A stretch of 64,000 bases of DNA from Lama guanicoe (taxonomy: Eukaryota), in contig MU053652.1 in NCBI GenBank assembly GCA_013239625.1, positions 6,439,902 through 6,503,901 on the forward strand. The letters run 5' to 3'. Below the pieces are notes generated by a model. That model searched no databases, was not told the origin of the DNA, and saw nothing but the letters and a program-made list of their open reading frames with translations. The first letter of the stretch is position 1. Each line of letters opens with the position of its first letter. The translations under genes were made by a program, and so were the position numbers. This document shows positions 7,091 to 63,590 of this stretch, in pieces.

Positions 7091-7094
7091 TGGC

Positions 7095-7312: not shown

Positions 7313-7314
7313 CA

Positions 7315-22336: not shown

Positions 22337-25175
22337 ACTTAACACCCCACTAACATCAATGAACAGATCTTCCAAACAAAAAATCAGAAAAGCAACAGAG
22401 ATTCTAAATGACACAAATAGAACTGTTAGACTTAATTGATATTTTGAAGACATTACCTCCAAAAAAAAAAAAAAGAAAGAAAGAAAAACAGAATACACAT
22501 TCTTTTCAAATGCACATAGAACATTCGCTAGAACTGACCACATACCAGGACACAAAACAAGACTTAACAAATTAAGAGGATGAAATTATTTCAAGCATCT
22601 TTTCAGATCACAAAGATGAAACAAGAAATCAACTGCAGAAAAAGAAACAAGAAAAAACTGACTGCATGGAGACTAAACAACATGTTAATAAAAAAACCAA
22701 TCAGTCAATGATAAATTCAAAGAGGAAATTAAAAAATACCTTGAGACAAATGACAATGAAAACACAACCACGCAAAAATCTATGGGATGCAGCAAAAACA
22801 GTCCTTAGAGGGAACTTTATAGTGATATAAGCCTTCCTCAAAAAACAAGAACAATCGCAAGTAAACAACCTATCCTACCACCTAAAAGAATTAGAAAAGG
22901 AACAAACAAAACCTAAAATCAGCAGAAGGAAAGAAATAATAAAGATTAGAGAGGAAATAAATAAAACAGAAAATAAATGAACAAAACCAAGAGCTGGTTT
23001 TTTTGAAATGGTAAAATAAAATCAACAAAGTTCTCCCCAGGTTCACCAAGAAGAAGAGAGAGAGTACCCAAATAAACAAAATAAGAAATCAAGGAGCAGA
23101 AATAACAACCAATATCATGGATATACAAAAAAAAAAGACAATACTGTATACAATTATGTGCCAACAAACTGGACAACCTAGAAGAAATGGACAAGTTTCT
23201 ATAAATATACAGCCCATCAAAACTGAATCAAGAAGAAATAGACAATTTGAACAGACTGATCACTAGAAGTGAAATAGAATCTGCAATAGAAAAAAAAAAA
23301 AAAAAAACTCCCTGCAAACATAAGTCCAGGACCAGATGGCTTCACTGGGGAATTCCACCAAACCAACAAAGAAGAACTCAAACCAATCATTCGCAAACTC
23401 TTCCAAAAGACTGAAGAGACGAGAACACTCTCAAAGTCATTCTATGAAGCCACCATCACCCTGATGCCAAAACCACAGAAAGACAATACTAAAAAGAAAA
23501 TTGCAGACCAATATCTCTGATGAATTTAGATGCAAAAATTCTCAAGAAAATATTAGCAAACCGAATCCAACAACACATAAAAAAGATTATACACCACGAT
23601 TAAGTTAGTTTCATCCCAGGGTCACAAAGATGGGTCAACATACACAGATCAATGTGATACACCCCATCACAAAATAAAAGACAAAAACCACATGGTCATT
23701 TCAATAGATACAGAAAAAGCATTTGATAAAATTCAACATCCATTCATGACAAAAGCTCTTACCAAAGAGGGTATAGAGGAACTATATCTCAATATAATGA
23801 AAGTTATTTTTGACAAATCCACAGTCAGCATAACACTCAACAGTGAAATGCTGAAAGCCTTCCGGCTAAAATCTAAATAAGACAAAGATGCCCCCTCTCA
23901 TCACTCATATTCATCATAATATTGGAAGTTCTACCCACAGCAATCAGACAAGGAAAATAAATAAAAGAGATCCAAATTGGAAGACAAGAGGTAAACCTGT
24001 CATTATATGTAGATGACATAATATTATATGTAGAAAACCCTAAAGATTATACACAAAAACTACTAGAACTGATAAATGAATTCAACAAGGAAGCAGGATC
24101 CGAGATTAACATACAAAACCCTGTTGTATTTCTTTACACTAACAATAAAATACCAGGAAGGGAAAGTTTAAAAAAAAAAACTTTTAAAATCAAAAATGAA
24201 ATACTTTGGAGTAAACCTGAACAAGGAGGTGAAAGATTTATACACTGAGTACTATAAAACACTGAAAAAGTAAACTGAAAATGATTCCAAGAAATGGACA
24301 GATACTCCATGCTCTTGAATTGGAAGAATTAATATTGTTAAAATGGCCATACTACCCAAAGTAATATACAGATTTAATGTGATTCCTATCAAATTACCCA
24401 GAATATTTTTCACTGAACTAGAAATAATCCTAAAATTTATTTGAAACCACAAAAGACCCAGAACGGATAGAGCAACACTGAAGAAAATTTAAAAAAAAAA
24501 AAAAACCTGGAGGAATAACCTTCCCAGACCTCAGACAATACCACAGAGCTACAGTAACCAAAACAAGATGGTAATCACACAAAAACAGACATACGTATTA
24601 ATGGAACATCTACCGTCAATTAATCTTTGACAAAGGAGGCAAGAATATACAATAGAGAAAAGAGAGCCTCTTCCGCAAGTGGTGTTGAGAAAGCTGGACA
24701 GTTGCATGTCAATCTGTGAAGTTAGAACACACCCTCACAGCATACACAAAAATAAACTCAAAATGGCTTAAAGATTTAAATATAAGACAGGGCACTATAA
24801 AACTCCTAGAAGGGGACATAGGCAAAACATTCTCTGAACCATAAACCAAAGCAATTCTCTTAGGTCATTCCCCTAAGGCAAATAAAAGCAAGTCTAAACA
24901 AATGGAATCTAAGCAAACTTGTAAGCTTCTGCACAGCAGGGAAATTATAAACAAAATGAAAAGACCATCTACAGAAAGGGAGAAAATATTTGCAGATGAT
25001 GCTTCAACAAGGGCTTAATTTCCAAAATATAAAAATAGCTCATACAATTCAATAGCAAAAAAACCCAAAAACCCAATCAAAAAATGAGCAGAAGACCTAA
25101 CCTAGACAGACATTTCTCCAAAGAAGAAATACAGATGGCCAATAGGCACATGAAAAAAGAAATGTTCAACATTAC
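22337..25175 (+). mobile_element. L1 ORF2 pseudogene (EN tail and RT), truncated at both ends
   Basis: [10 protein letters not shown] at about 23325, ISIDTEKAFDKIQHPFM (ORF 23692), SLYVDDIILYVENP at about 24000; frameshifts and stops; no 3' UTR or polyA. Confidence 0.95.
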
Positions 25176-36289: not shown

Positions 36290-36927
36290 GAAATGTAAGT
36301 ATGCTATACTAAAATTAAGAACATCTGTTCATCAAAGTTATTTCTATGAGAGCAAAATGCAAACCTCCAAGTGGGAGAAGATATTTGCTGTCCTTTATCT
36401 GAGAAAGTTTTTGATTCAGAATATAAAAGAGTTCCTTCAGATCAAAAAGAAAAAAGAAAACAGATAACTCAATACAACAATGATAGGCACTTCAAAAAAA
36501 AAGGCTATCCAAATGGCCAATAAATATATTGATATGGGATAAACGTCATTAATCATCAGGGGAATAAAAATTACAGGATACTATTAAACAACCAAAACAG
36601 CAATAATTAAAGATTTATGAAGCAACTAGAATTTTTATACACTGCCCATTAGAGTATAAATTTGACAAGCATTTTGTTTGGCATTATTTACTAAAATTGA
36701 ATATTCAGCTGCTTTATGAGCCAGCAGTTCTACTGCTAGTTACATACCCAATGGAAGTGTTAGTTACATTCACTAAAATTCATAAACAAGAGTATTCATA
36801 GCAGAGCTTTCATCTAGCTCCAAATTGAAAACAACCCAAATGTCAGGCCACAGTGGAAAAGATTAATATATCTTTAAATATTTACATACACAATGAATTT
36901 CAATATAGAAACGAACATAAATAAAAC
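36290..36927 (+). mobile_element. Old L1M ORF2 3' region
   Basis: aaaattaagaacatctgttcatcaaag...tgggagaagatatttgc...aaacaacccaaatgtc. Confidence 0.75.
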
Positions 36928-41870: not shown

Positions 41871-43209
41871 AAAGAAAAGAGGTGCAGACAAAAAAGTAGC
41901 AGAGACCTAAGATATTTTTGCAAACATATTATTATTGATGTTCATTCATTCCTTCATTCATGGACCATATGAAATAATAGCTGTATATAAGCAATATAAT
42001 AAGACTCTTGTGTAGGTGTATGGGGTAAATACTTGGTATAGATGGAGACATAAATAATACGGTGTGAATTTAATGCTGGGATTTTCAAGAACTTATGCTT
42101 CAGGGTGAAGATGGGAATTTTGATATTGTTTCATAGGGTGGTTCTGATTTACCTCATTTTTTATTTTTTCTCTATTTATATCTCATGCTTGAAATGGAGA
42201 TAATCATAATTAACTTGTGAAACATTTGCTATAATTTTCAAGAACCTTGCTTCCACCACTAGTTAAAAGATACATAGTTTAAATTTATATATAAATGTAG
42301 TGGTAACAGTATTGCTGGTGGTGACACCAGGGAATGAATAACCTCTGAAGTCACTGGTCGATTTCAAATGAAAGTAAGATATTCAAGCCTGCCTCTGGCT
42401 ATTTACACTGAGAGGCACAGAATAGAGTGGACATTGCAAAAACCATACTTGCTTTTTCCAATCTGTAATTCCTGTGCAATTCATTTATTAGAGCTTATTT
42501 TCCATCACTGAATAAAGAACAATTTATTTTTAAGTTGCTTAGGTTAGAAACTATAGAAAGGCAATTATATTTCTAATTTGTAAATAATATGCCAGCAAAA
42601 CTAAAGATGTCTCCATAGCTTATCTGCTAAGTTATCTACATAAAATAGCTTGATACACAATATATTACATAACATAGTACCTGTACATGCACTTCATATA
42701 TGTAGTATATAGTAGTATTATATAATATGCACTTTTCTTTATATATATTTTATATATTATCACTGGTGAGTGTTAAACTGAATAAAAAATCATAGTAAGA
42801 GTTTGTGTTAAAGTTTGATTACTGAGAATACACACATAGAGAACCTGTTGAAATAAAGTCATATTTTTCAATCTGAACAAAGAGGGATTTATTTGTATCT
42901 GGTTAAAAAGTATTGGGAGTTATTTTGGACATTTACCCAAGTGTTGTGTAAAGTAGATCCCTTTGTGATCACCACCTGTCATTCATGAGGCCCATTCTAC
43001 AACACAAAGCAACAACTGAAGAATGGATTTTATTGGGAGAAGTGTACAAGGCAGGTGTTCAATAAGAAGAGAAGGTACATTTTGTTGCTCCCCCAATCCT
43101 TTCATTAATCTCATAGAGGAGTATGCAGGATTAAGGCAATTGCTGTATATGCAGTGACATAGTTCATTTGTAAAAATAGAGGGGAATACTTTAAAAACCT
43201 TACCTTCTT

Positions 43210-45518
43210 GAGAGAAGCAAGATGGTGGAGTAGAAGGATGCTTGTAGCTCACCCTCTCCCACAAATACACCAAAACTCACATCTATGGACCTACTCAGGC
43301 AACCAGAGCACCTGCTGAACTCCAAGAGAACATCGCCCTCTTTGAAAGACAAAGACACCAAAAATTTGGTAGGAGAAAAGGAAAAACGGAAGAAGATAAA
43401 GCAAAATAGTCCAGGACCGATCCCATGGGGAGGAGTGGAAAAGGAGGACTAGCGCTCATTCACTGGGTCTGCCCCTCACCAATGGAGAGGCCAATGGGAT
43501 GCAGGGTGAGCCTCCGAGGCTCAGATCTGCCCTGAGCACCCCTTGACTGACAGAACTGAGTTAAACGGGCACAAAGGGTCCCCGCAACACCCAGCCTGAG
43601 ACGTGAGCCAGCAGCTGGGGCCGGGACAGGCTGCCCGAGCCAGGTGGAGGACTGGGGCGGCTGCACTGAGGCAGCCCCGGGGGACTGCAGGGTGCTACAC
43701 GCCATGGCTGGGAGGGGATACAGAGTAGAACAACCTCGGTTCCCTATAAATTGCAAAAAAAGCAAAGCAACACGGCTGCTGTGCCCTTGGGGGAGGGACG
43801 CTGTAGCCTTTGTCTCCTCAGACCCGTGCCACCATTACTGGCGCTTCTCACAAGAAGAGAGGCGGGGCGCAGCCACAGCTGCCATCTCCTCCTGTACAAA
43901 GTGGCCAGGTGGGGGCAGGGCCGAGACCTGAATCTGCACCCCGAGACCTGAATCCGCACCCAGGGGCTCCGCAACCTCCTAGGCAGGACTAAGACTTATT
44001 TACAGCCTGAAGCAGATAGGATCTTTCTGCCCTGGCACCTCAGAGAACTCTCGCTGCCAAGACAAATAAGGAGCTGAGATTTCATATAGAGTAGGGGCGG
44101 GGTGTTCTGTGGTCTTCCCCGAGCCCGCCTTTGTTGCGCTGACACGTGGCAGAGCAGACAGATGCACAGAACAGTGGAGTGACCGGTGCCAGGAGAGGGC
44201 AGGCGACCACCCAACTTCCTGGCAGGAACACAGCACCTGACCACGGTGCTGGGAGGGGGCGTGATCCTGAAAACTTCCCAAGCCTAAAGGAATCAGATAG
44301 CCAAGTACAGGAGGCTCAGAGGGACCCAAACAGGAAGAACCCAAACAGACCCACACCAAGACATATCATAATCAAGATGGCCAGAGTCAAGGATAAAGAA
44401 ATGATCCTAAAGGCAGCAAGAGAAAAACAAAGAGTGAGTTACAAGGGAACCCCCATAAGGCTCTCAGCTGATTTCTCTACACAAACACTACAGGCCAGAA
44501 GGGAGTGGCAAGATATATTCAAAGTCGTGAATGAAAAAAAAACATGCAGCCTAGGATACTCTATCCAGCAAGGCTATCCTTTAGGATAAGGAGAGATAAA
44601 GAACTTCACAGACAAGCAAAAACTACAAGAGTTTAGCAACACTAAACCCATGCTAAAAGAAATACTGACAGGTCTACTCTAAATAAAAAAGAAGCAGGAT
44701 GCTACAAAAATGAGAAACTCATAACTGGAAAGGAGATAACTGCCATGAATTACAAAAAGAATAAACACAAAATTGTAAAAGAAGACATCTAAATCATTAA
44801 GAGTGGGAGAGGGAAGCAAGGAAAGCCACGGTGGGAAACAGTATGGAGATTCCTCAGAAGACTAGGAATAGACTTATCATATAACCCAGGAATCCTGCTC
44901 CTGGGCTTATATCCAGAAGGAACCCTACTTCAAAATGACACCTGCACCCCAGTGTTCATAGCAGCACTATTTACAATAGCCAAGACATGGAGACAGCCTA
45001 AATGTCCATGAACAGATGACTGAATAAAGAAGCTGTGGTATATTCATACAATGGAACACTACTCAGCCACAAAAAACTGACAACATAATGTCATTTGCAG
45101 CAACATGGATGTTCCTGGAGAATGTCATTCTAAGTGAAGTAAGCCAGAAAGAGAAAGACAAATACCATATGAGATCGCGTATATGAGGAATCTAAAAAAA
45201 CAATCAAACAAAAAAAACCAACCATAAATACAAAACAGAAACAGACTCACAGACATAGAATACAAACTTGTGGTTGCCAAGGGGCTGGGGAGATGGGAAG
45301 GGACAGACTGGGATTTTAAAATGCAGAATAGATAAACAAGATTATACTGTATAGCACAGGGAAATATATACAAGATCTTGTGGTAGCTCTTAGCAAAAAA
45401 AAATGTGACAATGAATATATATATATGTTCATGTATAACTGAAAAATTGTGCTCTACACTGGAATTTGACACAACATTGTAAATTGACTATTACTCAATA
45501 CAAAAACGTAAAAAAAAG
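43210..45518 (+). mobile_element. Young L1-derived element with both ends and two internal deletions (5'UTR + ORF1 C-terminal half + ORF2 end + 3'UTR + A tail)
   Basis: TSD aaaaaccttaccttctt (43193-43209) / aaaacccttaccttctt (45519-45535); CpG-rich 5'UTR starting gagagaagcaagatgg; ORF1 motifs PRHIIIKM and GTPIRLSADFS; ORF2 C-terminal ATWMFLENVILSEVSQ; A-rich tail. Confidence 0.92.
44267..44682 (+). pseudogene. L1 ORF1p RRM/CTD fragment, frameshifted at an A run near 44535
   Basis: ENFPSL...PTPRHIIIKMARVKDKEMILKAAREK...QARREWQDIFK, then MQPRILYPARLSF...KPMLKEILTGLL*. Confidence 0.9.
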
Positions 45519-46323
45519 AAAACCCTTACCTTCTTAGAAGATAACTTTTTCAGCAGACGGATGATTAGATCACTGGGTACCAAGCAGTGTGAACTACAGT
45601 TCCAGATGTTTAGAGTTGTTGCCTCGAAAGACATCTGTCCATTATGAACTACTCTGGGACTGATGGGAAGCTGGGCTAAGGAACAGCATCTCCTGCAAGA
45701 AAAAGGAAGGCGCTAGACACTAGGAAAGCAGAATTTGGGTACACATGCTTCCACAGAGAAGTGGGCCCTAGGTTGCAGGTGACTCACTGCTCAGGTTAAC
45801 AGAATATGCTCCATGTGTCATTTCCAGATTATCTGCTTGTCAAGCTACATATAAGAATGTAAAATGTTTGTGATTTTTGTTAAAGTTTGGAAGTAAGAAA
45901 AATAGTTGCTTCTGGTTGATGAGTGCTGTCTTTTCAGAATCCAGTGAAACTGATATGAAATTTGCACTAAAAAGGTTCAAGAAAGATGTCAATTGTGACA
46001 GTATTGTTCGTGATTTTTCCTAAATTCTCTATTGAGTCTGATAGGATAGGAAGACCCCAAATCTCCCTAAGCCTGAAGTGAGGGCATTGTTGGGGAGGGA
46101 GTAAGTTCCTGAGGCACAGAGACTTGTGGAAAGATAGAGTGAGATTACAATTCTGAAATTTTAAATTTTCCTGACACAATTGTTGATGGAAGCAACCTCT
46201 TCTTTTATCTATGAAAAAACAAATCCCTTTAATAATTGCACTTTTGATCACTGTTGCACACCTCCCAAGAGCATGCTGACTCTCTTATGGACCAATCTCT
46301 GCCATCCCCTGTTGCCTCTATGG

Positions 46324-46533
46324 CAGTGGTACTAAACCTGGGCGATTTTTGTCCCCTAGGAGGACATTTACAATGCCTAGAGACATTTTTGGTTGTCACA
46401 ACTGGGAAGGTGGGTGCAACTGTCATCGATGAGTATGGACCAGAGATGCTTCTAAACATCCTACACGAACAATCGCCGGCAAGAAAGAATTATCTGACCA
46501 AAAATCTCGGAGTGCTGAAGTTGAGAAATCCTG
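46324..46533. mobile_element. MER20 (hAT-Charlie), copy 1
   Basis: cagtggtactaaacctgggcgattttt...gagacatttttggttgtcacaactggg...gttgagaaatcctg; 8-bp TSD ctctatgg/ctctagga. Confidence 0.9.
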
Positions 46534-46559
46534 CTCTAGGACCACAGAAAGAGTTTTTA

Positions 46560-47162
46560 TGTATGTTTTTTTATTCTGTGAAACAAATTAGCACCAAAGG
46601 AGGCTTAAAACGGTATCTGCTCATGATCTCACAGCCTCTATAGATTAGACCTGGGTAAGGATTAGCTGGGTTCTCAGTTCTCTGCCCAGGGTTTCACAAG
46701 GCTGAAATCAAGGTGCTGGCTCGGTTGCATTCTCATAAGGATGCACAACTAGGGAAGGTGTTGCCCCCCCAGCTCCCTTAGGTTGTTTGTTGTTGGCAGA
46801 ATTCATTTCATGGTGGCTGTAGAATCCATGGCCAAAATGGAGAGAGAGAATGACTCCTCTTCGAGTCTAGCTTTAAGGAAGGCCTGTGCTCTCTTGTAAC
46901 GGGTTCACTCAGGTAGGACAGGACAAACCAGGATAATCTCTCATCGGGTATTGGAAGTCAATAAACGATTTGGGACCTTAATTACATCTGTAATACCCCT
47001 CTTCTTTTGCCATAAAGCATGAGATAACCATGAGAGCAGTATCCTATCACCTTTGCCATATTAAATTGGTTGGAATCAAGTTATAAATCCTACCACCATT
47101 CAAAGGGAGGGAATTACTTAAGGGCACGGCTCATTAAAGGTCACCTTTGACTGTGCTCATCA
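46560..47162 (-). mobile_element. MLT1 (MaLR) LTR; further copies at 48248-48850 and 50355-50957
   Basis: aacaaattagcaccaa...gcttaaaac...cacaaggctgaaatcaaggtg...ttggcagaattcatttc...gggaccttaattacatctg. Confidence 0.8.
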
Positions 47163-47249
47163 GACTTCCTACTATAACCCGGAGTGAAAAAGAGCCCACC
47201 TTCAAGAGGAGACAGTGTCATTCTGTACGCGACTTGTGGTTACTTCAGA

Positions 47250-47849
47250 GTGAACAGGGGAAACAGACATCAACTGACAGATTCCTTGCATTGTTTCCTG
47301 GCTTGTGAAGTCAAAGTCATTATGGCAGAAAGGGGACAGTAAAAGTTCTGGAAGTGCCACCAACCCATATAAAAACTGCAAATCAGAAACAACATAGCTT
47401 CACTAGGACAAATACAGAGTACACTGCCATCGAATATCTGAAAGATGCAAGGATGGTGAATCCTCACATCCCCATTTGTATCACCTGCTTGGCCTGTACA
47501 AAGTCCAATGTACTTGGGAAGTTGATAGCAGGTTTCCATAAACCTACTGAGATGGTAATGCCAACTACAGGTGCCATACTGGATGCAACATTGGATGGCA
47601 AAAATACTCATAACTCTGGCACCTGGTACGCAGCTACAGGCCTGCCAAATGCTGTCGGTTACATTCCCATATATAGTTTGCATTTACGTAGCAAGGACAA
47701 TAGTACACCTTTATTGCCTTGCTTTCTTTCTGTTATAATATTATTTAGAGGACTTTTAGTCATTTTGATACCCCTCATAATATCTCATTGATCCATTATA
47801 CTGAAAATATTATGTTAGTTGGCTCCAGTAAGCAGTAAGAATACTAAAA
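47250..47849 (+). pseudogene. ERVL protease end / RT remnant, copy 1
   Basis: NSGTWYAATGLPNA resembles ERVL SPGTWYAAIDLANA; FT*QGQ*YTF resembles FSWQGQQYTF; HYTENIMLVGS resembles HYIDDIMLIGS. Confidence 0.85.
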
Positions 47850-48011
47850 AAAATTTTCCTGACACAAATGTTGATGGAAGCAACCTCTTCTTTTATCTAT
47901 GAAAAAACAAATCCCTTTAATAATTGCACTTTTGATCACTGTTGCACACCTCCCAAGAGTATGCTGACTCTCTTATGGACCAATCTCTGCCATCCCCTGT
48001 TACCTCTATGG

Positions 48012-48221
48012 CAGTGGTACTAAACCTGGGTGATTTTTGTCCCCTAGGAGGACATTTACAATGCCTAGAGACATTTTTGGTTGTCACAACTGGGAAGGTG
48101 GGTGCAACTGTCATCGATGAGTATGGACCAGAGATGCTTCTAAACATCCTACACGAACAATCCCTGGCAAGAAAGAATTATCTGACCAAAAATCAGGGAG
48201 TGCTGAAGTTGAGAAATCCTG
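48012..48221. mobile_element. MER20, copy 2
   Basis: Copy 1 shifted by +1688. Confidence 0.9.
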
Positions 48222-48937
48222 CTCTAGGACCACAGAAAGAGTTTTTATGTATGTTTTTTTATTCTGTGAAACAAATTAGCACCAAAGGAGGCTTAAAACG
48301 GTATCTGCTCATGATCTCACAGCCTCTATAGATTAGACCTGGGTAAGGATTAGCTGGGTTCTCAGTTCTCTGCCCAGGGTTTCACAAGGCTGAAATCAAG
48401 GTGCTGGCTCAGTTGCATTCTCATAAGGATGCACAACTAGGGAAGGTGTTGCCCCCCCAGCTCCCTTAGGTTGTTTGTTGTTGGCAGAATTCATTTCATG
48501 GTGGCTGTAGAATCCATGGCCAAAATGGAGAGAGAGAATGACTCCTCTTCGAGTCTAGCTTTAAGGAAGGCCTGTGCTCTCTTGTAACGGGTTCACTCAG
48601 GTAGGACAGGACAAACCAGGATAATCTCTCATCGGGTATTGGAAGTCAATAAACGATTTGGGACCTTAATTACATCTGTAATACCCCTCTTCTTTTGCCA
48701 TAAAGCATGAGATAACCATGAGAGCAGTATCCTATCACCTTTGCCATATTAAATTGGTTGGAATCAAGTTATAAATCCTACCACCATTCAAAGGGAGGGA
48801 ATTACTTAAGGGCACGGCTCATTAAAGGTCACCTTTGACTGTGCTCATCAGACTTCCTACTATAACCCGGAGTGAAAAAGAGCCCACCTTCAAGAGGAGA
48901 CAGTGTCATTCTGTACGCGACTTGTGGTTACTTCAGA

Positions 48938-50088
48938 GTGAACAGGGGAAACAGACATCAACTGACAGATTCCTTGCATTGTTTCCTGGCTTGTGAAGTC
49001 AAAGTCATTATGGCAGAAAGGGGACAGTAAAAGTTCTGGAAGTGCCACCAACCCATATAAAAACTGCAAATCAGAAACAACATAGCTTCACTAGGACAAA
49101 TACAGAGTACACTGCCATCGAATATCTGAAAGATGCAAGGATGGTGAATCCTCACATCCCCATTTGTATCACCTGCTTGGCCTGTACAAAGTCCAATGTA
49201 CTTGGGAAGTTGATAGCAGGTTTCCATAAACCTACTGAGATGGTAATGCCAACTACAGGTGCCATACTGGATGCAACATTGGATGGCAAAAATACTCATA
49301 ACTCTGGCACCTGGTACGCAGCTACAGGCCTGCCAAATGCTGTCGGTTACATTCCCATATATAGTTTGCATTTACGTAGCAAGGACAATAGTACACCTTT
49401 ATTGCCTTGCTTTCTTTCTGTTATAATATTATTTAGAGGACTTTTAGTCATTTTGATACCCCTCATAATATCTCATTGATCCATTATACTGAAAATATTA
49501 TGTTAGTTGGCTCCAGTAAGCAGTAAGAATACTAAAACTCTTACTGTTAGATATGCTTCCAAGAGTGTGGTAGATAAACTCAACAATTTAAAGATCTACT
49601 TTATTGGTGAAGTTTCTAGGGATCCAATGGTATGGAGCATTTGGGGATATTCCTATTAAAATAAGAGAAAGCCTGCTTTGCTTCATACCACCCATCAAAA
49701 GCAGGAGGCACAGTGCACAGTGAACCCACTCAAATTTTAGAAGTGATATAATTATACTTGATTGCTCTGCTCTGCACATCTTATAGATAACCCGTGTGGG
49801 AGGACAATCACGACTGAGACCTGGAGCACAGATTTCTGTAGCAGGTCCTGGCTGTAGCACAAGACACCCTATCACTCGAATCATATGACTCCATTGGTCC
49901 AAATATATTGGAAGTTATTCTGTAGGATAATCTGGAAAACCCCAAAGAATCAGACAACAGACTCCTAGAGTTACTACCTCACTGCTTCTATCTCAACCAT
50001 GGCCAGTTAACACAGGAGAAGGAAGCGACGGCACAGTATATGGGCAAGCCTTCATGGTATTCTGGCCCAGGCTAAGGCTGATGGCTTT
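48938..50088 (+). pseudogene. ERVL RT remnant, copy 2, extending into the connection region
   Basis: As copy 1, plus VKFLGIQWYG (gtgaagtttctagggatccaatggtatgga). Confidence 0.85.
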
Positions 50089-50118
50089 AATCTCTGCCAT
50101 CCCCTGTTGCCTCTATGG

Positions 50119-50328
50119 CAGTGGTACTAAACCTGGGCGATTTTTGTCCCCTAGGAGGACATTTACAATGCCTAGAGACATTTTTGGTTGTCACAACTGG
50201 GAAGGTGGGTGCAACTGTCATCGATGAGTACAGACCAGAGATGCTTCTAAACATCCTACACGAACAATCCCTGGCAAGAAAGAATTATCTGACCAAAAAT
50301 CAGGGAGTGCTGAAGTTGAGAAATCCTG
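50119..50328. mobile_element. MER20, copy 3
   Basis: Copy 2 shifted by +2107. Confidence 0.9.
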
Positions 50329-51044
50329 CTCTAGGACCACAGAAAGAGTTTTTATGTATGTTTTTTTATTCTGTGAAACAAATTAGCACCAAAGGAGGCT
50401 TAAAACGGTATCTGCTCATGATCTCACAGCCTCTATAGATTAGACCTGGGTAAGGATTAGCTGGGTTCTCAGTTCTCTGCCCAGGGTTTCACAAGGCTGA
50501 AATCAAGGTGCTGGCTCGGTTGCATTCTCATAAGGATGCACAACTAGGGAAGGTGTTGCCCCCCCAGCTCCCTTAGGTTGTTTGTTGTTGGCAGAATTCA
50601 TTTCATGGTGGCTGTAGAATCCATGGCCAAAATGGAGAGAGAGAATGACTCCTCTTCGAGTCTAGCTTTAAGGAAGGCCTGTGCTCTCTTGTAACGGGTT
50701 CACTCAGGTAGGACAGGACAAACCAGGATAATCTCTCATCGGGTATTGGAAGTCAATAAACGATTTGGGACCTTAATTACATCTGTAATACCCCTCTTCT
50801 TTTGCCATAAAGCATGAGATAACCATGAGAGCAGTATCCTATCACCTTTGCCATATTAAATTGGTTGGAATCAAGTTATAAATCCTACCACCATTCAAAG
50901 GGAGGGAATTACTTAAGGGCACGGCTCATTAAAGGTCACCTTTGACTGTGCTCATCAGACTTCCTACTATAACCCGGAGTGAAAAAGAGCCCACCTTCAA
51001 GAGGAGACAGTGTCATTCTGTACGCGACTTGTGGTTACTTCAGA

Positions 51045-52690
51045 GTGAACAGGGGAAACAGACATCAACTGACAGATTCCTTGCATTGTTTCCTGGCTTG
51101 TGAAGTCAAAGTCATTATGGCAGAAAGGGGACAGTAAAAGTTCTGGAAGTGCCACCAACCCATATAAAAACTGCAAATCAGAAACAACATAGCTTCACTA
51201 GGACAAATACAGAGTACACTGCCATCGAATATCTGAAAGATGCAAGGATGGTGAATCCTCACATCCCCATTTGTATCACCTGCTTGGCCTGTACAAAGTC
51301 CAATGTACTTGGGAAGTTGATAGCAGGTTTCCATAAACCTACTGAGATGGTAATGCCAACTACAGGTGCCATACTGGATGCAACATTGGATGGCAAAAAT
51401 ACTCATAACTCTGGCACCTGGTACGCAGCTACAGGCCTGCCAAATGCTGTCGGTTACATTCCCATATATAGTTTGCATTTACGTAGCAAGGACAATAGTA
51501 CACCTTTATTGCCTTGCTTTCTTTCTGTTATAATATTATTTAGAGGACTTTTAGTCATTTTGATACCCCTCATAATATCTCATTGATCCATTATACTGAA
51601 AATATTATGTTAGTTGGCTCCAGTAAGCAGTAAGAATACTAAAACTCTTACTGTTAGATATGCTTCCAAGAGTGTGGTAGATAAACTCAACAATTTAAAG
51701 ATCTACTTTATTGGTGAAGTTTCTAGGGATCCAATGGTATGGAGCATTTGGGGATATTCCTATTAAAATAAGAGAAAGCCTGCTTTGCTTCATACCACCC
51801 ATCAAAAGCAGGAGGCACAGTGCACAGTGAACCCACTCAAATTTTAGAAGTGATATAATTATACTTGATTGCTCTGCTCTGCACATCTTATAGATAACCC
51901 GTGTGGGAGGACAATCACGACTGAGACCTGGAGCACAGATTTCTGTAGCAGGTCCTGGCTGTAGCACAAGACACCCTATCACTCGAATCATATGACTCCA
52001 ACGGTCCAAATATATTGGAAGTTATTCTGTAGGAGAATCTGGAAAACCCCAAAGAATCAGACAACAGACTCCTAGAGTTACTACCTCACTGCTTCTATCT
52101 CAACCATGGCCAGTTAACACAGGAGAAGGAAGCAACGGCACAGTATATGGGTAAGCCTTCATGGTATTCTGACCCAGGCTAAGGTTGATGGCTTTCTCAC
52201 TACCATCTCACTTAGCAGTGATCTTATCCAACACTCTGTTGGCACAATTCTGGTGGTAAATCTGTTTGGTCATCTAATGTGAAAGAAGAGACAGGTTGAG
52301 TACCCAACCTGCCAATAGCAGAGGCAAATGCTGATCCCTATTCTCTGGGGAAGCCAATGGGCTTCCCAGTGGTAAGTTCACCATGTTTGACACCTCCTCT
52401 CACAGAGACATGGCACTCCATAGTTACCAAAAACATGTATATTTTACAAGTATGGATTTGTCTCCTCCTTCTCTAGTGGCTATGTACATACTATTATTTT
52501 TTTCACTTACTGAATGCCTTTTACATAGCCATTGCATCGCTTATAATACTGCCTTCCACCAGAGGACATACTTTTTTATAGAAGAAAATTCTATGTGTGG
52601 CTAATGCTGTCGATGTCAGTTTTGGAGTATAATATGTTTTCTATCACCCTGAGATGTCATATCTTGATGGTAATCTGTGGATCTTCTGTG
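51045..52690 (+). pseudogene. ERVL pol remnant, copy 3, continuing into integrase
   Basis: As copy 2, plus EYPTCQ*QRQML (about 52298) resembling ECPICQQQRPTL, and AFHQRTYF (about 52551) resembling ASDQGTHF. Confidence 0.8.
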
Positions 52691-52747
52691 ACTAAGACAC
52701 AAATGCTTCATTACACAAAGGACAGAGTGACTGCTGAAGGGCAAAAG

Positions 52748-53312
52748 GGTAGATTTTTGCAATTATCTTCCATTTATCCCTCAGAACCACTCTCCACTTT
52801 TATCCATCCTGTCTTGGGAAACTGACTTGTAAGGGGCTATGTGAAAGGGCCCCCATGTTGTTTGGTTTCAGTTTTGATTTAGTCAATATGAGCCCCACGG
52901 AGAGATCAGAGGGAAGTGATCCTGGGATGCATACCATCTTGACATTTTCTCTTTTGCTGTCCTCAGGTCTGGCTGTATCGTTTCACTGAAGGTCATAGTT
53001 TTTCTCAAGTTGGGTCTCCGTATTTGATTCTGATGGCTTTAAGTAGCTGCTCCCTGCCTTCATCCATCTGAGCTTCGGAGTGTTAATAGCACCACTCTAT
53101 CTTTCTAGATTCTATTCATCACTCTGCATACTCCTCCATTTATGTTTAAGTGTGGTAACTGTCTATCATTACTAGTCCATTACTAGATACTGCAGTATCG
53201 TTTGTGGTGCTGTTTGTGCCCAAACTGTTGTGGATAATCCCTTGCTAATTATTATCAAATTGTCTTAATTTGAGTCTGGTATCTATTTACTATGGTGGTC
53301 CTCACTTAAACA
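52748..53312 (+). mobile_element. LTR33-like LTR, probable 3' LTR of the ERVL remnant
   Basis: ccctcagaaccactctccactttatccatcctgt...ggctgtatcgtttcactgaaggtcatag; same family as 26600-27095. Confidence 0.6.
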
Positions 53313-53957
53313 AGGGCAGAGGCCAGAACACAACTGAAAGAGGAATAGAGACAATATGTTAGAGCTCATTCTGATATTCTTCTTCAAGAAAGAGCTGGAA
53401 TCCAGGAAACTATTGATTTAATTTTGCAGATAGAGACACAGTAGCAAACAGACTCCATTAATATTTTTTGTAGATCAAATAGAAATAAATTTGACAGTTT
53501 CAAGAGAAAAAAAATAGAGATAAATTCAACATGAAGTACTCAACTATTGAGTGAATGTCAAGGTCACATAATACTAAGTAGGAGGAAGGACAGATATTAC
53601 CAGAACAGGAGAGGCAGACATTACCTGAACCTTAAAGGAGTATGGGAGAGAGAGGAGAGGGGATGGAAGGAGAGGAGGGAAGGGAAGGAAAGGAGAAAGC
53701 AAAAAACCTACCAGAGAGATATGCTACTTACATCCTGGCATACTCAAGACTCCAGACAAACACATTCTCTTGAAAGCTTTATGTCACAATGATATGTCCT
53801 TCCTTGGACTCTAGGGACACAGGCTTGATGCACATTTTAAGAAGCTTCATTTTTTTTTATAAGGAAGTTTCATTTCTTTAATCTACTAACGGAGCTACCT
53901 CGTTTGGAATAAATTTAGTGACAAAGGGAATCCTTCCTATGGACAGAGGCTTTAATG

Positions 53958-54036
53958 GTCTTAGCAACTCCTCCTCTGAAAGAGGCAGGGGCTATGACGT
54001 CTGTGGGGCAGGATTTAAGATGCTTGCTTATAAAAA
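53958..54036 (+). promoter_or_regulatory. Candidate core promoter: RFX X-box-like site, CRE-like site, TATA box
   Basis: gtcttagcaac (about 53958-53968), TGACGTCT (53995-54002), TATAAAAA (54029-54036). Confidence 0.4.
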
Positions 54037-54813
54037 CACTGGAGGCTCAAAGAAGAAATTGGAAATTAGAGGCTTCTAAAATTTTTATTCTCTTATAAGA
54101 TGCTGTAACTTGAACTGCCATAATTATAAATGAGTAAGTTCTGAAAGAGACTAAAAATCTTAAATGACACACTCTGAAAATATAGACCATAGGAAAGACA
54201 GTTTTTACCCCATCCCTAAATCCACACTAGATATGGTAAAACATAGTTAAAACATTAAACTTCTTGACTTTTCCTAATTGTGTTCGTGTGCACAGATCAC
54301 AGACTATAGATTGGGTAAATACATATTCTGGTTTACCTAGGAGAGGTCTGCTTTATCTTTGTCAGAATCCTGCCTATTTAGCATTTGTTCCCTCTAGTTC
54401 ATCCTTTCTCAAAATTGGTTCAGTTTGTGAGAAAAGCTACATGGGCGCTCTAATCATATAAAACTAGTATGGAATGATTGAAACTCAGGCAAGGTCGAAC
54501 CAAGTTTTCTCTTTCTTAGTTACATTTCTTTTTGTGGACAGAACTAAGACTCTGGTAGGATCTTTGGCAATGCTAAAGCTTAGGGCTGGAACTATAAATT
54601 TGTTTGCAATAATGACATATTAGAAATAAAAAAATCTCTTTTTTTCTCCAGATGTCATGAGTGTGGGGCCCATACTTAGGCTCCAACAGAAATCTGACTT
54701 TTTGTTTTCAGGGTTAGATTTTGCTTCTTCTATTGAGAGAGATATTCCTTATTTTACGGGAAAAAAATACAAACTCATAGTTTCCATTCCTATGAAGGCT
54801 TCAGATAGCATGA

Positions 54814-54848
54814 ATGTATGTATGTATGTATGTATGTATGTATGTATC
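54814..54848 (+). repeat. (TATG)n microsatellite
   Basis: About 8 TATG units. Confidence 0.95.
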
Positions 54849-54961
54849 TACCTACCTATCATCTCTTTTCTTGATATCCTCAGCAGCAGCCTTTGTTTTC
54901 GGGTTCATATGTGAAGAGCTTTTTCTCTTTACGGGTCTGGCTCTACTTACGGAAAGCCCAT

Positions 54962-54971
54962 GTGACGTCAC
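54962..54971. promoter_or_regulatory. Full palindromic CRE (GTGACGTCAC)
   Basis: Perfect TGACGTCA with its CpG retained, in unique DNA. Confidence 0.4.
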
Positions 54972-55999
54972 TATGACTATTCTGGTCACAGCAGAGTGGA
55001 GCAATGCAATTGGCTGCACTGGCTTAGCCCCTGGGAGAGCAGCAGGATAGCAATGATTGTAAATTTAAAACAGACAAAAAAGATGCCATTTTTGAGATGT
55101 GGATACCTTCTAGTTGAACATAACTGTGACTTTAGAAAGACATTTTCCTGTTTTAAATTCACAGCAGTTGAACTTCTTGGATGTCGACTCCCCTCTCCAA
55201 GGGCTAAGCCAGCACGGCCATTTTGAAAGATTTGTTCCTCCGTGACCTGAGGAGCAAAAGACATTTCAAACAATGGGCTCAGAGGCAAAGCACACTGTGC
55301 ACGGGAGAATGACTAAAACATCCTGAAAGGGTTTCCAGTGACGGGGCCTTTGGAGAATTGTTCTAGCCCTAGACATGCTTTCCTGCAAAAGACTCAGATT
55401 TGAACACAGAGAAACAAAGAAAAACTAAAACAAACCTTGTTGTTAAGAGATTAATTTAAACAATCATCTGGGGGATTTCTTGTTTGCTTTCTTTCTTTTC
55501 TGTTCTATTGGTTTTGTTTTGTTTTCGGTTTGCCTCCTTAATTTGTATTAACATTGAAGAATTAAACAAGTTCATCAAATATATCAATTCTGGAGTGAGC
55601 CATGGGCAAAATGGTGATGAAATATTTGCCTTTGAGGGACATCTTGAGCTCCTTTTTTGATTTATAGGTTTCCCCTCCCCTTTTCCCCACTCCAATTCCT
55701 TTCTAGCTTTTAGCAGATCATTTCCTCTAATTTCCAAATCCAGTGGATCATCCTAGTGTTTATTATTGTCCCTCCCTAGAGCATTAGATGGAAAATACCC
55801 TTCCTCCCTTGATTTCTACCACAGAACTCTGCCAATATCCTCCTACTCCTTTCTGACTTTCTCTTGTTGGTCTCTTTGTCTCTTTGTTGGGATTATTGTC
55901 TGCTTTCTGCCCATTAAACTTCTTCCCCGATGCTATCATTCTTCTTTTTCTTCTTAGCTGTACTGCGTGGGGGTAATCACATCTAAAAACTTATTTTTA

Positions 56000-56330
56000 A
56001 TCTTTATGAATTAAGTTTATTTTTTGAATATGTAAAACAAAATAGGTAGAGAAGCCACATTTCCTGTCCTATCAGTTTCATATCAGTTCCACCCAACATA
56101 CATAATCAATTTGACTAGTTTTTGGTGCATTATTTCTTTGTTTATGTTTACAAAAATAAGAAAATATATATGTATTCTTACTTAGTTTTACTTAAGCAAA
56201 TGAGGGCATATTGTATATATTCATTTATCATGGTTTTCTTTTTCTATTAAAAATTTATTTTACAAATCACTCCACAACAGTTCATAAAACTTATTTTTTC
56301 ATTTATTTTTATATATATGTAGAATTCTAT
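56000..56330 (-). mobile_element. Old L1M 3' end
   Basis: T-rich tail; gcatattgtatatattc...aaatcactccacaacagttcataaaac. Confidence 0.5.
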
Positions 56331-56984
56331 TTTGGTCCCAATCCTCAGCCCTATCTGACCCGAAGCTAAAAGAGATAGAAACTTATTCAAATATGAAGTG
56401 AAGACTGTCTTTTTTTTCCAACTAAGATATTAGTTGGGAATTCTAGATTTTGACTTTCCTTTTCCCCACTTAAATTCTCCAGTGTTGTCAGAAGTGACTA
56501 CAACATGCCATCATCTTTGAAATCACTATTTTCACCAGAGCACCTCAGTATGAAAACTCCTTGATCACCCAGTGTCCTTTTCTCCATCTATACTTCATCT
56601 TATACTATCACTGGTGATAATTTAGCTAATAATCATGATTTCCCACATGCCATGATTTCTAGAATCCTATCCTCCAAATGAGAAGGATGATTTATGTTTG
56701 TGTTTTCTTTTGCCAGATACACTCTTAATCCAGGATTAACCTGTGTTAATTCATAAATTAGGCCAAAAGTTTTGTCATCAATAAATCATACTAAGACAGG
56801 GGAACAACTGACATCACCCTTTAAGCCTACATTTTAATGCATCTTTACATTGAGAATATTCAAGGGGTGTGCGTGTGCGTGTGCGTATGTGTGTTCAGGC
56901 TTGTCACTTCTTAAGTCTTTCCTCCTATTGCCTATTTGGCCATTAAAACCCAAGACTCTTGGGTATTCTACTCTGAGGTATGAT

Positions 56985-58105
56985 GTGGTGGTTGCTACAG
57001 GCCAGTGATCCTGGTAAAAATAACTTGGGAAAAGCCATCTAAATTTTAAAAATTCCATACTTTAGAAAGCATCAGAGGGCTATGGAAGCAATGAGGTTTT
57101 GAATTAATAAAGACTTTCTGAGGTGAAATGATAATGCTGACAACTGCCATCCATCCTATTCCTTCCAGGGGACGTGTGTTAATTCTTGGTATAGATTTAC
57201 AATTTTGCTTGTCCTATATAGAGACACTCTGCTGTGGTAAAAGGAAAATCACAAACGTTTTATGTGAAGGAGATGAATTGAAGTGAAAAGCATTGGAAGT
57301 TGGGAATATCAAATGTATGGCTGGTGTGCCCAAAGGAATATTTGTTTGCTGGGCTCTGAAATTGTGTAGAAGGCCACTGAATTACACCAAAATCTTGTAA
57401 AAGCATATGAAATATTCCAGTTTCACGGTATTTAAGAAAAAAGATCCGCTGGGAGAAAGGGCTGGACTGCAAGTTTACGGCCAGTTATCCAGTTAAGGCA
57501 TAAGTTGTATTTGAAGCTACACTGGGCAGGAAGCTGGCTATCTAGGCTGGGAAACTGCAGGAAAAACTGCTGGGTAATCCGGTGTCTTTAATATTGCAAA
57601 GTAAGATACTTAAACAGACCCACAATCAAAATTATAGGAAGACTATACTCAGGGAAAGGGGATGAACAGAGATAAATGTGACCTTCGAAAACTGCAACCA
57701 CACTTGACACAGTTTAATTTGTGTATCAGAGGAAAGTGACTACCTAATCTGGAAAAATAAGATATCATACAGAATTTCATGGTCCTTTATTTATATATAT
57801 CTAATGTCAAAAAAATTACTAAACTTGCAAAGAGGCAAGAAAATCTGGCTGATAATCAACACAAAAAACAAAAGAAGACACAAATAATCCAGACACAGGA
57901 ACTTGCATACAAATATTTTTAAATAAGTATATTAATACAGTAAATAAAATATATGGGAAAATGGCTCAAATAAATGAAAGAATGAAGATATTCAATAGAG
58001 AACTGGAATCTATAAAAATAATTGTATAGATGTCCTAAAGGTGTAGTATATTAAATTAAGAACCCAAGGAATAGATTTAACAGAAAATTGGACACCACAG
58101 ATGAG
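56985..58105 (+). mobile_element. Old L1M 5'/ORF1 remnant
   Basis: ttcaatagagaactggaatctataaaaa...gatttaacagaaaattggacac. Confidence 0.55.
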
Positions 58106-58988
58106 ATGAGAGGAGATGAGATGAATAATGAATGATGCAATAAAAAGCAACTTAACTGGACCCACCCTTCTTCAAATCATTTTTCCCCACTCAATCAGAA
58201 AAATCACTCTAAAATCCAAATTTGATTACTTTCCTCAAAAAAAAATCAATAGATTCTCAGTGCACTTAGGAATAGTATACATATTCTTTAATAGTCTTAA
58301 TATAATTTTACAAGACCTGTCCCTTTATATCTTTCTGGAACATATTGTCACTAAGCATACATTATATATTACTTAAATGAAATACAAGTTGCTGGTGGAC
58401 AGTGAAGAATTTCACCTAATAAAAATAGAAGATACACATACCAATTCAACTTGTTAAAGTGCTTATTTAAGAGACATTACAGGTTCCTGTCCAAGGGCTT
58501 GGCCAACTGAAAGTGATATGTTAGAAAATTTGGTCTGGCAGCAGGCTACAGACTAGATTTTAGTTGAGATAATTTCATTTTAAAGATAAACTTAAAAAAT
58601 TAAAATTACACACTCTTGGAACAGTACTCATTTCCAATAAACTCAAACCAAGACATAATCTTCCTTCCTGGGGCTTTCCTAGTGACCACTGAGAGACTTT
58701 CTGTATCCATTTTTTTTTTTGCCTTATTCACAAATCATCTGTGAATATTCCAGACCTGAACAACAGAAAGTCAATAATCCTCCACACAATTTCAGTTGGT
58801 ATTTATCTTTCTTGGGAACAAAAGTGTCAAAACTACATTATTTAAAGATTGGAAAATTTCTAATTATTACAAAGACGTTTATCAATTTATGTTTTGAGTA
58901 AGAATTATTAGCTTTACTAGTTGAGTTCCTCATATCTACAGAAAACTAAAAACAGGTTGAAATATGTTAACTTTGGAAGAGATAGATA

Positions 58989-59301
58989 CCCTGTCCCTTG
59001 GTATCTGTGGTGGATTGGCTCCAGGACCCCCAGCAGAAAACAAAGTACATGGATGCTCAAGTTTCTTACATAAAATGGTGTAATATTTGCATGTAATGTA
59101 TATACATCCTCCCATATACTTTAAATTATCTCTAGTTAACTTACAATACCTAATACAATAGAAATGCTACGTAAATAGTTGCTGGCATGAGACAAATTCA
59201 AGTTTTGCTTTTTGGAACTTTCTGAAATTTTTTTTGAACATTTTGATCTGTGGTTCATTGAATCAAAGGATCTGGAATCCACGAATACAAAGGGCCAACT
59301 G
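58989..59301. mobile_element. MER2 (Tigger-derived MITE)
   Basis: gtcccttggtatctgtg...ggattggctccaggacccc...ggatgctcaag...aatacaaagggccaactg; TA on both sides. Confidence 0.9.
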
Positions 59302-62229
59302 TATAAGTCGTTTGAAAATTCAGCTTAATAAAATGTAAAAGAAGGAAAATTTCAAAAGGCTGAATTCTTTTGAAATAAAGTTGGGCCCTATTGTTCTTTC
59401 AAACTGAAAAAATTTAATGTATTTTACTTCCCTAATAAATTGCATTACATAAAAATATAAGAATTCTTCTACTAAAATGAAAATAATTCTAAAGAACTCC
59501 TCCTATAAAAAAAAACCTCCCATTTGAAATAACACTAAAAAATGACATAGCAATTATGTGATACACATAGGAATACAGTAAAAACTTCCTGTATCAGAAC
59601 AATGATACTGAATTCCTTTTAAAATGTTTTTGTCATTAATTTCACATTGGATAGACTTAAGTATAATGGATGTTAAGAGAATATTAAGTAATTCAGATTC
59701 TTATAATGCAAATAATGGGAAACTACACAATCTCCATAAAATGAAATACAGAAACCCAGCAGTATTTTTCTCTCTGGCAGAGCTATACCTGAGTTATATT
59801 TTGCCCTTCTGCCTGATTACAAAAATTGACAGAACACAGTGCTAATCAAACGAAGGTAGTAGTATATGCTGTCTCATTTGATGCCATTTCAATCCTTACT
59901 TCCTTGGTCACAGAATATAAATCCAAATTTAGCAAACTTGCCAAAATATTCCATTCGTCATGAGAAAGAAGTGTTTGGGTCAAAACAAAACAGATTTTAC
60001 AAAAAAATTCTGAAAATACATGTACGCTTGGCTACTGTTGATCTGGTCCTAGCTCAAAGATCTTATACAAATGTGCCTCCTTAATACAAAACAATGTTGT
60101 TTCACAACAATCACTTCCAATACCAAGTCCAAAGTTAGTTTCAAGCTGGAGAAACATTTTTAAACACTTGCTGTACCAAATATTCACTTATATGAGTGCC
60201 TACTAAGGCAAGACAGCAGCATTAAGACATATTTGCTTGTTAAAGTGTTATTGTATTGATATGTGATTTCTATGATTGCCCAGGTGCTTTGCAGTTTTAT
60301 CATATATCTTACAATGCCTTGGTTAAAAGGCATTAAAGTTGAAGTTGAAGTTGAAGTTTTAAAAGCATAATAAATATGTATTGTAATATAGAAGCTGAGT
60401 AATTAAGCAGAACTCTAGCAATCTTACAATAATTTGTCAATATTATTGCTTTATATGGAACATGTGCACTGCAGAGAATTTACAATTTCTGTAGTTTGCA
60501 GAAACTACATATGCAGTGTCTCTCAAGCACTCAGTACACTTACTTTTAACAATTTCCCTGCAGGTTAAGTGCTATCGATTCCAATTTGTTTTTTCTTTCG
60601 TTTAGAGAAATTTAAAGGCCTTGTTCAGTTCAAACCATAGTTAAACCTCATTACAAAGCACCCTGCTCTACTGTATATGGAGTGATAATATATTGGCTGT
60701 GTCCCCACTATGCAAGGCAATGCCCCTGTAATGTCAGTAAAACATAGTCTCTAAGAGAATCTGTGCTTATTCCTAGCACTGGAATTCATCAGTATGTATT
60801 TATTTACTTATTTGGGTCATCCAGGTCTAATCAGATGCAGGTGAAGCAGCCTGCCATTCAGGCATGAGTCTTCATTTGACTCCTCAGCTTGCACAATAGG
60901 GAATTAACCTTGTCCACTATTAGTTTACTGTTAAAACATAGGGGATTCTCTGAGTTAGCAACATAAAATCTCTGTTCTGTGGGCATTTGCCCAAGAAGAG
61001 AAACTGGAGTTATTTACTGTAGAGATATTGTTGATGATCCGGTTCTATACATCGCAGCGTATGGTCCTTATGAGGATTCATGGGACAAGATTCACTGAGA
61101 TCTTAGAAACGGGAATAGACTTTCCAAACTTCGTCTTAACTTCAGGCACCGTCAGTCATGGAATGGAGGATCTTTCTCCCTTGACAGTGATGACCAGAAA
61201 GCTCAGAGCAAATTTGTAGCCCAGTTCGAGTAAGTGTGTAGGACCTTATGGCATGCACTTCATCCTTGGCTTCGTTTTATTTTTCTTACCATTAATACAC
61301 TTCACTGCTATTTCCACAGCTATTTATGTTGTACTGTTTGTGTTTTAAACAGTCCACATGATACAGTTTTACTCGGGTTCGGGAGGTAGAAGGGAAGCAG
61401 AAGCCAGCATTGCTTCTGCTGCAGAAGTGGGTGGGATACAGGCTTCCGTGGACAACCAAGGAGAATTCTAGTCCACAGGTTCTGAGAGCGCCCTTGCAGG
61501 GCACCCACTCTGGTCCCGTAGGCAGCTGAGATCGTTGGTAACAGTGGCCGATGATTTCTGCACTTCCTGTTTTAAAGAACACTGCAGTGGCCTCCCTGAC
61601 CCTCCTTCTGTCAATAGATCCAACATTCTTCAGCTTCTGATGTCCAGTATTAAGTTTTGTTTTTGTTTGTTTTTTGGTTTTTGGTATAAAAAACCTGGAA
61701 GTCACCGCTTCTCTGGTGACTCTCTTTGCTCTTCATTTATTCAAAGCAGGGAGACCTGCATTGGCCCTGATGGTTTCTGATTTCGCTCCTACAAAGAGGC
61801 CTCTCAAACAGAGTCTTCCCTTCAGCAAGTAGGGAAGACATGTTCTCCTGCAGAGCTTCCACTGGCTGAAAAGGGCCAAAAATGGGCCTATTCCCACAAC
61901 CGTTAACATACAACTGAGCCTCTGAAATCCGTTCATGCTCTGTAACCATCTTAAATTAAGGCTCAGTAACTAGAAAAGTGTATCACAATCCCATATGCTA
62001 TTAAATGACCATTCCTGTCCTCATCAGAATAGTGGGCAGAAATTCTTTTCTGGTTGGGTATTGGGGACAGGCAGTTCAGTATATTTCTGGTGTTTACTGG
62101 AAACATACACAGATACACACACAGACACACACAGACACATATACATTTGGAATCTGCAATTGTGTAACACATATGCACTTAAATTTGATGAAGCCAAAAC
62201 AAATACTAGCTGTTTCTCATGGCTCTAAA

Positions 62230-62500
62230 TCAGCTTCATCTAAGTGTTCCCCATGTTGGTAAAACGAAGCACCATCTTCCAGATGCTCAGGCCAAAAATC
62301 ATAGTCATTATTTAAAGCTTTTTTTCCTTCACCCCTGCATTCAGTCAGTCAGTCAACTGAATTAGTTCTAGTTCTGCTCACATCTCAAATCCGTGTGTGT
62401 CTTCCTTTCTTTACTCTTCTCACTTTAGTGCCTGGTTTGCTATCACCTCTCTGTGCGATTACTGCTGAGTCGTTGGCCTGGATTCTCATCATTACCACTG
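62230..62500. mobile_element. L2 fragment
   Basis: gcaccatcttccagatgctcaggccaaaaatc. Confidence 0.6.
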
Positions 62501-63419
62501 ACCTAGATTACATAGCATATAAATGCATATATATACATACACATATACATGATAGTTGGTAATCTTCAGTTTTTAGGTTTAATTGTAAAAATTCTGGATC
62601 ATAGACTCCTTTTTCAAAATTGGGAGATTTGACTGCACTGGCTCTCCCTTCCCACACAGCCACAGGGCATGTGATTTTTAGGTTGCCAATGTGCCAAGCC
62701 ATTCCTGAGGTGTCCCAACTCTGAGGACAGGTATCAGCTGCCGATTTTTACTTTTTATACTTACACTGCTGTTTTTCTCATAGTAAAAATGAGAGAAAAG
62801 AAAACTGTTTCCTGCACAACAAACACATCTCTATCAAAAAAATATAAAGTAAAAATACACCTGAAGTATAGTGTGATTCTAAAAAAAGTTGAGGGAAACA
62901 TATATCTCTACAAGTGAAGACTATTCCCTCATATTTAATACTCAAGCTTAGAGCATCCATCGTTGAGATAATAAAATTTAGGTGCCACCGTAATACCTCA
63001 GCTGGAGGTATGTGAGTATGGGACTACTGCTCCAATAATACTTCTTTATTCATAACAAAGATGCACATCATGCTTTATGGTTTAAAAATGTCATTAACCA
63101 TGATATTTCACTGGATCCTCACAACACTGCCAAGAAGGGAATGGTGAAGACGAAGGAAGGGCCAGTAGGAGAAGCTGATCTGTGTAAGTGCACGCAGCCA
63201 ATGATAAAGCAGGGAATAAATTTTAGTCTTTGGACCTTAAGGCTTGCACTTCTTCTAACCCAAAGGATACACATCCTATAACATCTCAGTATAAAGAGAT
63301 TTAACATGTCTATCTCATTTGCTTATCATATTCACAGCATTGATACTTAGAGTTCTTCAATCAGAGGATACGAGTGCATTTCTATCGATCATGACACTTT
63401 GACTTCAAGGAGACAGTCA

Positions 63420-63590
63420 GGTTTAACAGACAGAATTCAAGTCTTGGGTTTACATTCCAGTTCGGACATCTACTACCTTCTGTGGGGACCAAAACGTGAT
63501 GTAAGTTCATGAACTGAACTTACTCTGCGAGGCTATAGAGGGGAATAAGTGAGATAATATATGTAAAGTGTCCAGCAGAGTTAGGGCTGC
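63420..63590 (+). mobile_element. MIR fragment
   Basis: ctgggtttacattccagttc-like start; gtgagataatatatgtaaagtg. Confidence 0.5.

Follow-up and report, generated by a model that had tools for sequence, protein, structure and literature searches.

Results

Structure of the element and marks of its insertion

The window analysed was a stretch of 64,000 nucleotides of Lama guanicoe DNA (assembly GCA_013239625.1, contig MU053652.1, positions 6,439,902 to 6,503,901 of the forward strand). At positions 43210–45518 of the window a camelid-type L1 of 2.3 kb was found, which kept its 5′ start, 3′UTR and A tail and carried two internal deletions, joined at 44266/44267 (junction 1) and 44825/44826 (junction 2). 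An earlier sequence-only reading had described a 2.3-kb L1 with both ends between these bounds, flanked by a 17-bp TSD with one mismatch, and both descriptions were confirmed. The two TSD copies (43193–43209 and 45519–45535) were identical at 16 of 17 positions; with at most one mismatch the 17-mer occurred only at these two sites in the whole window, and 16/17 was reached by none of 20,000 random pairs of a 17-mer and an 80-nt stretch. The left copy followed TTT and started with AAAAA, an L1 endonuclease-type site when compared with the consensus given in the covered part of PMC5860796. The deletions had also been called precise, which holds for the joins, clean and with zero inserted bases, and for nothing beyond that.

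The whole element was read on the + strand. Its first 1,057 nt (43210–44266; GC 0.57, CpG o/e 0.39) were 5′UTR lacking the 3′ part, and at junction 1 (44266–44268, with a microhomology of 1–2 nt) this 5′UTR passed into the middle of ORF1. The ORF1 remnant (44267–44682) covered residues ~163–300, its frame after 44267 corresponding to the ORF1 of P0006, a relative of 300 aa, from residue 163 onwards. Pfam models PF02994 (E 1.4e-19, model positions 30–98) and PF17490 (E 9.7e-07) matched there, and the L1 RBD-like and dsRBD-like domains of ORF1 were present as a remnant only, with part of the RRM and the C-terminal domain. One codon was lost from this remnant, frameshifts lay near 44541 and 44589, and the stop was at 44680–44682. 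The following 44683–44825, placed after the ORF1 stop and free of any ORF2 match, would be the first ~143 nt of the inter-ORF spacer. At junction 2 (44824–44826) the spacer was joined to the last ~122 codons of ORF2 (44826–45195), a remnant broken by in-frame stops at three places and, near 45073, by a frameshift. The 3′UTR (45196–45518) had a degenerate poly(A) signal at 45497–45502 and a tail of eight A at 45510–45517.

Both junctions thus fell where they had been placed before. About 0.65 kb or more was missing at junction 1, comprising at least ~170 nt of the end of the 5′UTR and ORF1 codons 1–162, and most of ORF2 was missing at junction 2. The reported absence of EN and RT was borne out, and a C-terminal Cys/His motif, which we take to be the CCHC knuckle, was counted as gone with them because the ORF2 remnant starts just after it; in camelid ORF2 the motif ends a few residues ahead of junction 2. 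With frameshifts and stops in both remnants, the element encodes nothing functional and has decayed after insertion. The insertion occurred by target-primed reverse transcription (TPRT), as seen from the TSD, the endonuclease-type site, the tail and the intact 5′ start.

The six best matches of the ORF2 remnant were all Camelus dromedarius L1 ORF2, with protein identities up to 83% (dromedary ORF2 pieces such as KAB1262767.1), and the ORF1 remnant was 92% identical in protein to P0006 over the 90 residues searched. Translations of the 5′UTR matched a dromedary model (P0245, KAB1270384.1) and an alpaca model (P0381, XP_072828304.1). By these protein matches the element is assigned to camelid-type L1, of which, at 2.3 kb, it is not a full-length copy; the Repbase name L1-2_Vpa occurs in the covered part of PMC6726744. 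Camelid L1 DNA was sought in viral contigs, metagenomes, GTDB genomes, phages and plasmids and none was found in them or in the literature searched; the metagenomes yielded one ruminant-like L1 (L001), at 68%. Three further candidates were rejected: the sole viral-contig match (L002) had no similarity to the element, the GTDB match (L003) was a chance 21-mer within unrelated microbial DNA, and P0380 was a shrimp repeat matched by chance.

Other features were observed in the window. An older L1 ORF2 fragment at 22339–25175 (+) matched L001 at 71% over 1,292 nt and ended abruptly, short of the position of junction 2; the sequence behind it was unrelated to L1, contained a poly(A) signal and is possibly an LTR. 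Ancient L1 pieces lay at 6863–7700, 16426–16668 and 36676–36885, consisting of matches to ORF1 and to the start of ORF2, separated by a gap, and of two ORF2 3′ pieces. About 630 bp downstream of the element, 46163–52207 held three tandem copies that were 99.2–99.6% identical in aligned blocks of 1.6–2.1 kb and each contained the same 137- and 160-codon stop-to-stop frames; they either arose by tandem duplication very recently or are an artefact of the assembly. No Rfam family reached the gathering score in 52300–64000.

Splice test at junction 1

The deleted ends at both junctions were deduced from residues of relatives' proteins and were not read from DNA. Across junction 1 the element read G-R-D-P-E-N-F-P. 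On the 5′UTR side, P0245 and P0381 both read on with D-P-P and ~60 further residues, while on the ORF1 side the closest proteins, P0006 (92%) and P0010 (84%), both had I-M-T-E-N-F-P. The motif was present in 211 of 240 ORF1 hits, and since the two residues ahead of it varied among these hits (M-A being the commonest, 74), only close relatives were informative. Codon enumeration against the element's own letters allowed three registers, in which the donor was CN, NC or CC and the acceptor GA, AC or CN, and GT-AG, GC-AG and AT-AC pairs fitted in none of them; the two sides shared 1–2 nt (C or CT). The test assumes that the source element equalled P0245/P0381 and P0006/P0010 at those codons, and each side rests on two independent proteins, the 5′UTR pair being computed gene models from different species. 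Read through these four relatives' proteins, junction 1 would be a non-splice deletion.

This result bears on the proposal of the sequence-only reading that the element arose by retrotransposition of a doubly spliced L1 RNA. The insertion shows the same TPRT hallmarks as SpIREs in the covered part of PMC5860796, and an AG is possible at junction 2. The AG that the sequence-only reading gave as possible before junction 1 does occur in the ruminant-like L001, but the proteins of the element's own L1 family do not allow it, and both sides of the junction fail independently in every register. Moreover, the element retains a 5′UTR stretch of ~485 nt that P0381 skips; a GT and an AG stand close to the two ends of this stretch, the register being one residue off and the correspondence approximate. 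Judged by the proteins of the four relatives, the proposal finds no support, and we regard it as extremely improbable.

The stretch skipped by P0381 corresponds to window 43369–43854, with GT at 43369 and AG at 43853, and its skipping possibly reflects splicing within the 5′UTR of camelid L1, as in the human SpIRE class. The last ~70 nt before junction 1 (44192–44266) resembled, in another frame, the 5′UTR of P0381 beyond the junction (54% over 24 residues), and junction 1 apparently marks the boundary between two 5′UTR repeat units; a 20-nt direct repeat was also present at 43921/43941. A 5′UTR–ORF1 fusion gene was considered and rejected, for the in-frame join is a 1-in-3 event, lacks an ATG and lies behind a stop.

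Junction 2 and the dromedary model P0245

The residue before x-L-W-K was examined in 28 camelid-named or same-cluster ORF2 proteins, where it was Q in 20, K in one, namely P0245, and H in one, the remainder being one mis-hit and five unmatched proteins. Since Q is encoded by CAA or CAG, the acceptor at junction 2 could be an AG, as had been suggested earlier. Judging from these residues, the AG could also be a 2-nt microhomology, contributed by either side.

P0245 carries the 5′UTR of the element's L1 family without junction 1. In the part of it that was examined, no match to ORF1, EN or RT was found, and its ORF2 sequence begins at the junction 2 residue (...S-K-L-R-K-P-L-W, against Q-G-K-P-R-W in the element). 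Its R-K could be encoded by the element's own junction 2 letters. Among 23 dromedary models examined, five had an ORF2 match behind at least seven non-ORF2 residues (offsets −18, −14, −6, −3 and +7), and P0245 (offset −3, with a loose L-R-K match) was the sole one whose exact ORF2 residues start at junction 2. Two readings of the model are conceivable: within a full-length L1 an intron was predicted up to a CAG, or the model comes from a second copy that has junction 2. Compared with the element it has several gaps and a different ORF2 tail, for which reasons it was weighed as a lead and not as support. In another computed model, the Camelus bactrianus GTF2F2 isoform P0247 (XP_074234302.1), the last 277 residues were a nearly intact L1 ORF2 C-terminus, which is a possible L1 exonisation or a model artefact.

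These observations raise the main rival reading, that junction 2 was inherited from an ORF2-less, trans-mobilised source and that junction 1 is a private loss of this copy. In its favour are the Q ahead of P-L-W, with its possible CAG, and a model of the same 5′UTR family, free of junction 1, whose ORF2 begins at that residue. In the covered portions of the literature, human SpIRE(97/622)-65 likewise combines one splice with one deletion (PMC5860796) and HAL1s arose several times in mammals (PMC5753468). Yet P0245 is a computed model differing from the element as described, an intron predicted to end at that AG in a full-length L1, with R-K drawn from the 5′UTR, explains it equally well, and the SpIREs described in the covered part of PMC5860796 use a single 5′UTR donor. 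We consider this reading possible but rather doubtful as a whole. A source formed as a HAL1-like camelid family by deletion appears improbable, and a source that was a recurrent spacer-to-ORF2 splice product somewhat more improbable still.

A hypothesis was also framed in which camelid L1s repeatedly drop ORF2 at junction 2, from the spacer to the codon past the CCHC knuckle, possibly by splicing, and the resulting 5′UTR–ORF1–3′ end RNA is trans-mobilised as an undescribed ORF2-less family. The element would be a member with a private extra deletion and KAB1270384.1 another member. We hold this hypothesis to be unlikely.

Copy number and recurrence of the junctions

No second copy of the element was present in the 64-kb window, and none of the other L1 pieces in it spans junction 1 or junction 2. 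A further copy was hinted at solely by P0245, a gene model of ambiguous meaning. Scans of viral contigs with the junctions gave no match and were uninformative, because the ORF2 motif likewise found no camelid L1 in that collection. In a run search with 42700–46100, part of the stretch was shared by 20 of 24 rows. Fourteen contig sets (apparently DNA, or of unknown type; 8 studies, 4 organism labels) shared 0.61–0.66 of the words, the flank making up ~0.32 of the stretch, and six RNA runs shared 0.11–0.30; such words say nothing on the junctions or on expression, since any related L1 supplies them. An ORF2-less or spliced camelid L1 was not described in the portions of the literature searched, a negative that does not establish novelty.

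The whole 2.3-kb structure might belong to a trans-mobilised non-autonomous family whose master already had both non-splice deletions. The element keeps 1,057 nt of 5′UTR, the 3′ end and the tail, which are the needs of transcription and trans-mobilisation, and with inheritance two rare events need not have coincided at a single locus. The lack of a second copy in the window argues weakly against such a family. The same is true of the junction-1 protein search, in which the 120 hits listed of 518 reached a query coverage of 49% at most and none matched on the 5′UTR side, a weak search in which the candidates were just 44–140-aa proteins, few of them camelid. At the position of junction 1, P0245 and P0381 both run on into further 5′UTR, and according to the covered part of PMC5860796 L1 proteins favour the RNA that encodes them and a copy lacking functional ORF1 is described as a dead end, which again weigh slightly against the family. 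We judge it decidedly improbable.

A collapse of a full-length L1 by mis-joins in the assembly was also weighed. The 1–2 nt shared at junction 1 are too short for a repeat-collapse join, the window contains no N, and the 99%-identical tandem copies nearby were resolved; such an artefact is very unlikely.

Discussion

In this study, we described an L1 in Lama guanicoe that retains its two ends around two internal deletions. Its best explanation appears to be a solitary, decayed camelid L1 with two non-splice deletions, to which we assign about an even chance; the weights of this and all other readings are judgements and were not computed. A camelid L1 RNA would have been inserted by ordinary TPRT, and two inner stretches would have been lost at the locus by non-splice events. 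The loss may have happened when the reverse transcriptase jumped forward on the RNA at microhomologies of 1–2 nt during insertion, or through later DNA deletions, two routes that are indistinguishable here. The copy would be a singleton, and its decay would have followed the insertion. Since junction 1 would already be one non-splice deletion, the second needs no new mechanism. In the covered part of PMC5860796 (S1 Table, counted by eye) an extra internal deletion is listed for 5 of 140 human reference SpIREs. One of the five, SpIRE(97/622)-65, measures 1,015 bp, has an 18-bp TSD and lacks 4.5 kb internally.

Several findings stand against two private deletions. At the human rate two independent deletions would occur at ~3–4% each and at ~0.1% jointly, unless the jumps were correlated; junction 2 lies exactly behind a possible AG (Q-P); and in P0245 the ORF2 sequence likewise begins at this residue, preceded by R-K. 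The rarity of a double deletion may be partly offset by the large number of camelid L1s (>100,000 L1 hits of all lengths in camelid genomes, according to the covered part of the PMC5203782 supplement) and by the fact that the element was picked for its oddness.

As a singleton the element matters little, because tables of human L1s already contain short copies with intact ends and internal deletions. Recurrence of junction 2 at several camelid loci would point to a recent rise of an ORF2-less L1 lineage, perhaps via splicing. Should that be true, camelids would hold a young HAL1-like lineage and, if it is spliced, a direct route from L1 to HAL1, and a living lineage would allow tests of how HAL1 elements originate and of how far L1 cis-preference extends.

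Comparison with known systems

The element behaves as a dead L1 copy with internal deletions. Internal deletions in L1 insertions are tied to 5′ inversions in the covered part of bioRxiv 2024.08.27.596794, and the element is free of such inversions. The closest human counterparts are the SpIREs of Larson et al. 2018 (PMC5860796), which are compared here as far as the covered portions of that paper describe them. They have the TPRT hallmarks in common with the element, and of the features taken there as standard, a TSD of about 6–25 bp, an EN consensus site and poly(A), all are found in this insertion. SpIRE(97/622)-65, -21 and -72 and SpIRE(97/853)-9 share with it a 5′ start, a TSD, an EN-type site and a large internal deletion, and SpIRE(97/622)-65 even has two missing stretches. 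However, the first gap in those human elements is a true splice, while junction 1 of the camelid element fails the splice test. Its 5′UTR-to-ORF1 join resembles that of the SpIRE97/976 class. SpIREs have GU-AG junctions that are shared by many copies, with a donor near the 5′ end, whereas the join here leaves the 5′UTR after ~1,057 nt, resumes at ORF1 codon 163 and, by the residues of the relatives, has neither a GU donor nor an AG acceptor. On those residues, the element is not a SpIRE at junction 1. As to junction 2, a spacer-to-ORF2 class of SpIRE does not appear in the portions of PMC5860796 covered.

HAL1s are the other relevant group. Like the element, they are described in the covered parts of PMC5753468 and PMC13756887 as derived from L1, with 5′UTR and ORF1 sequence and without a functional ORF2, and both would need ORF2p in trans. 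The element shares with them the loss of all ORF2 coding capacity. HAL1s form multi-copy families that encode ORF1p (PMC5753468, covered part), whereas here ORF1 has lost codons 1–162 and bears two frameshifts. Since HAL1s encode ORF1p and the ORF1 of the element lacks its first half, the element is not a HAL1 as it stands.
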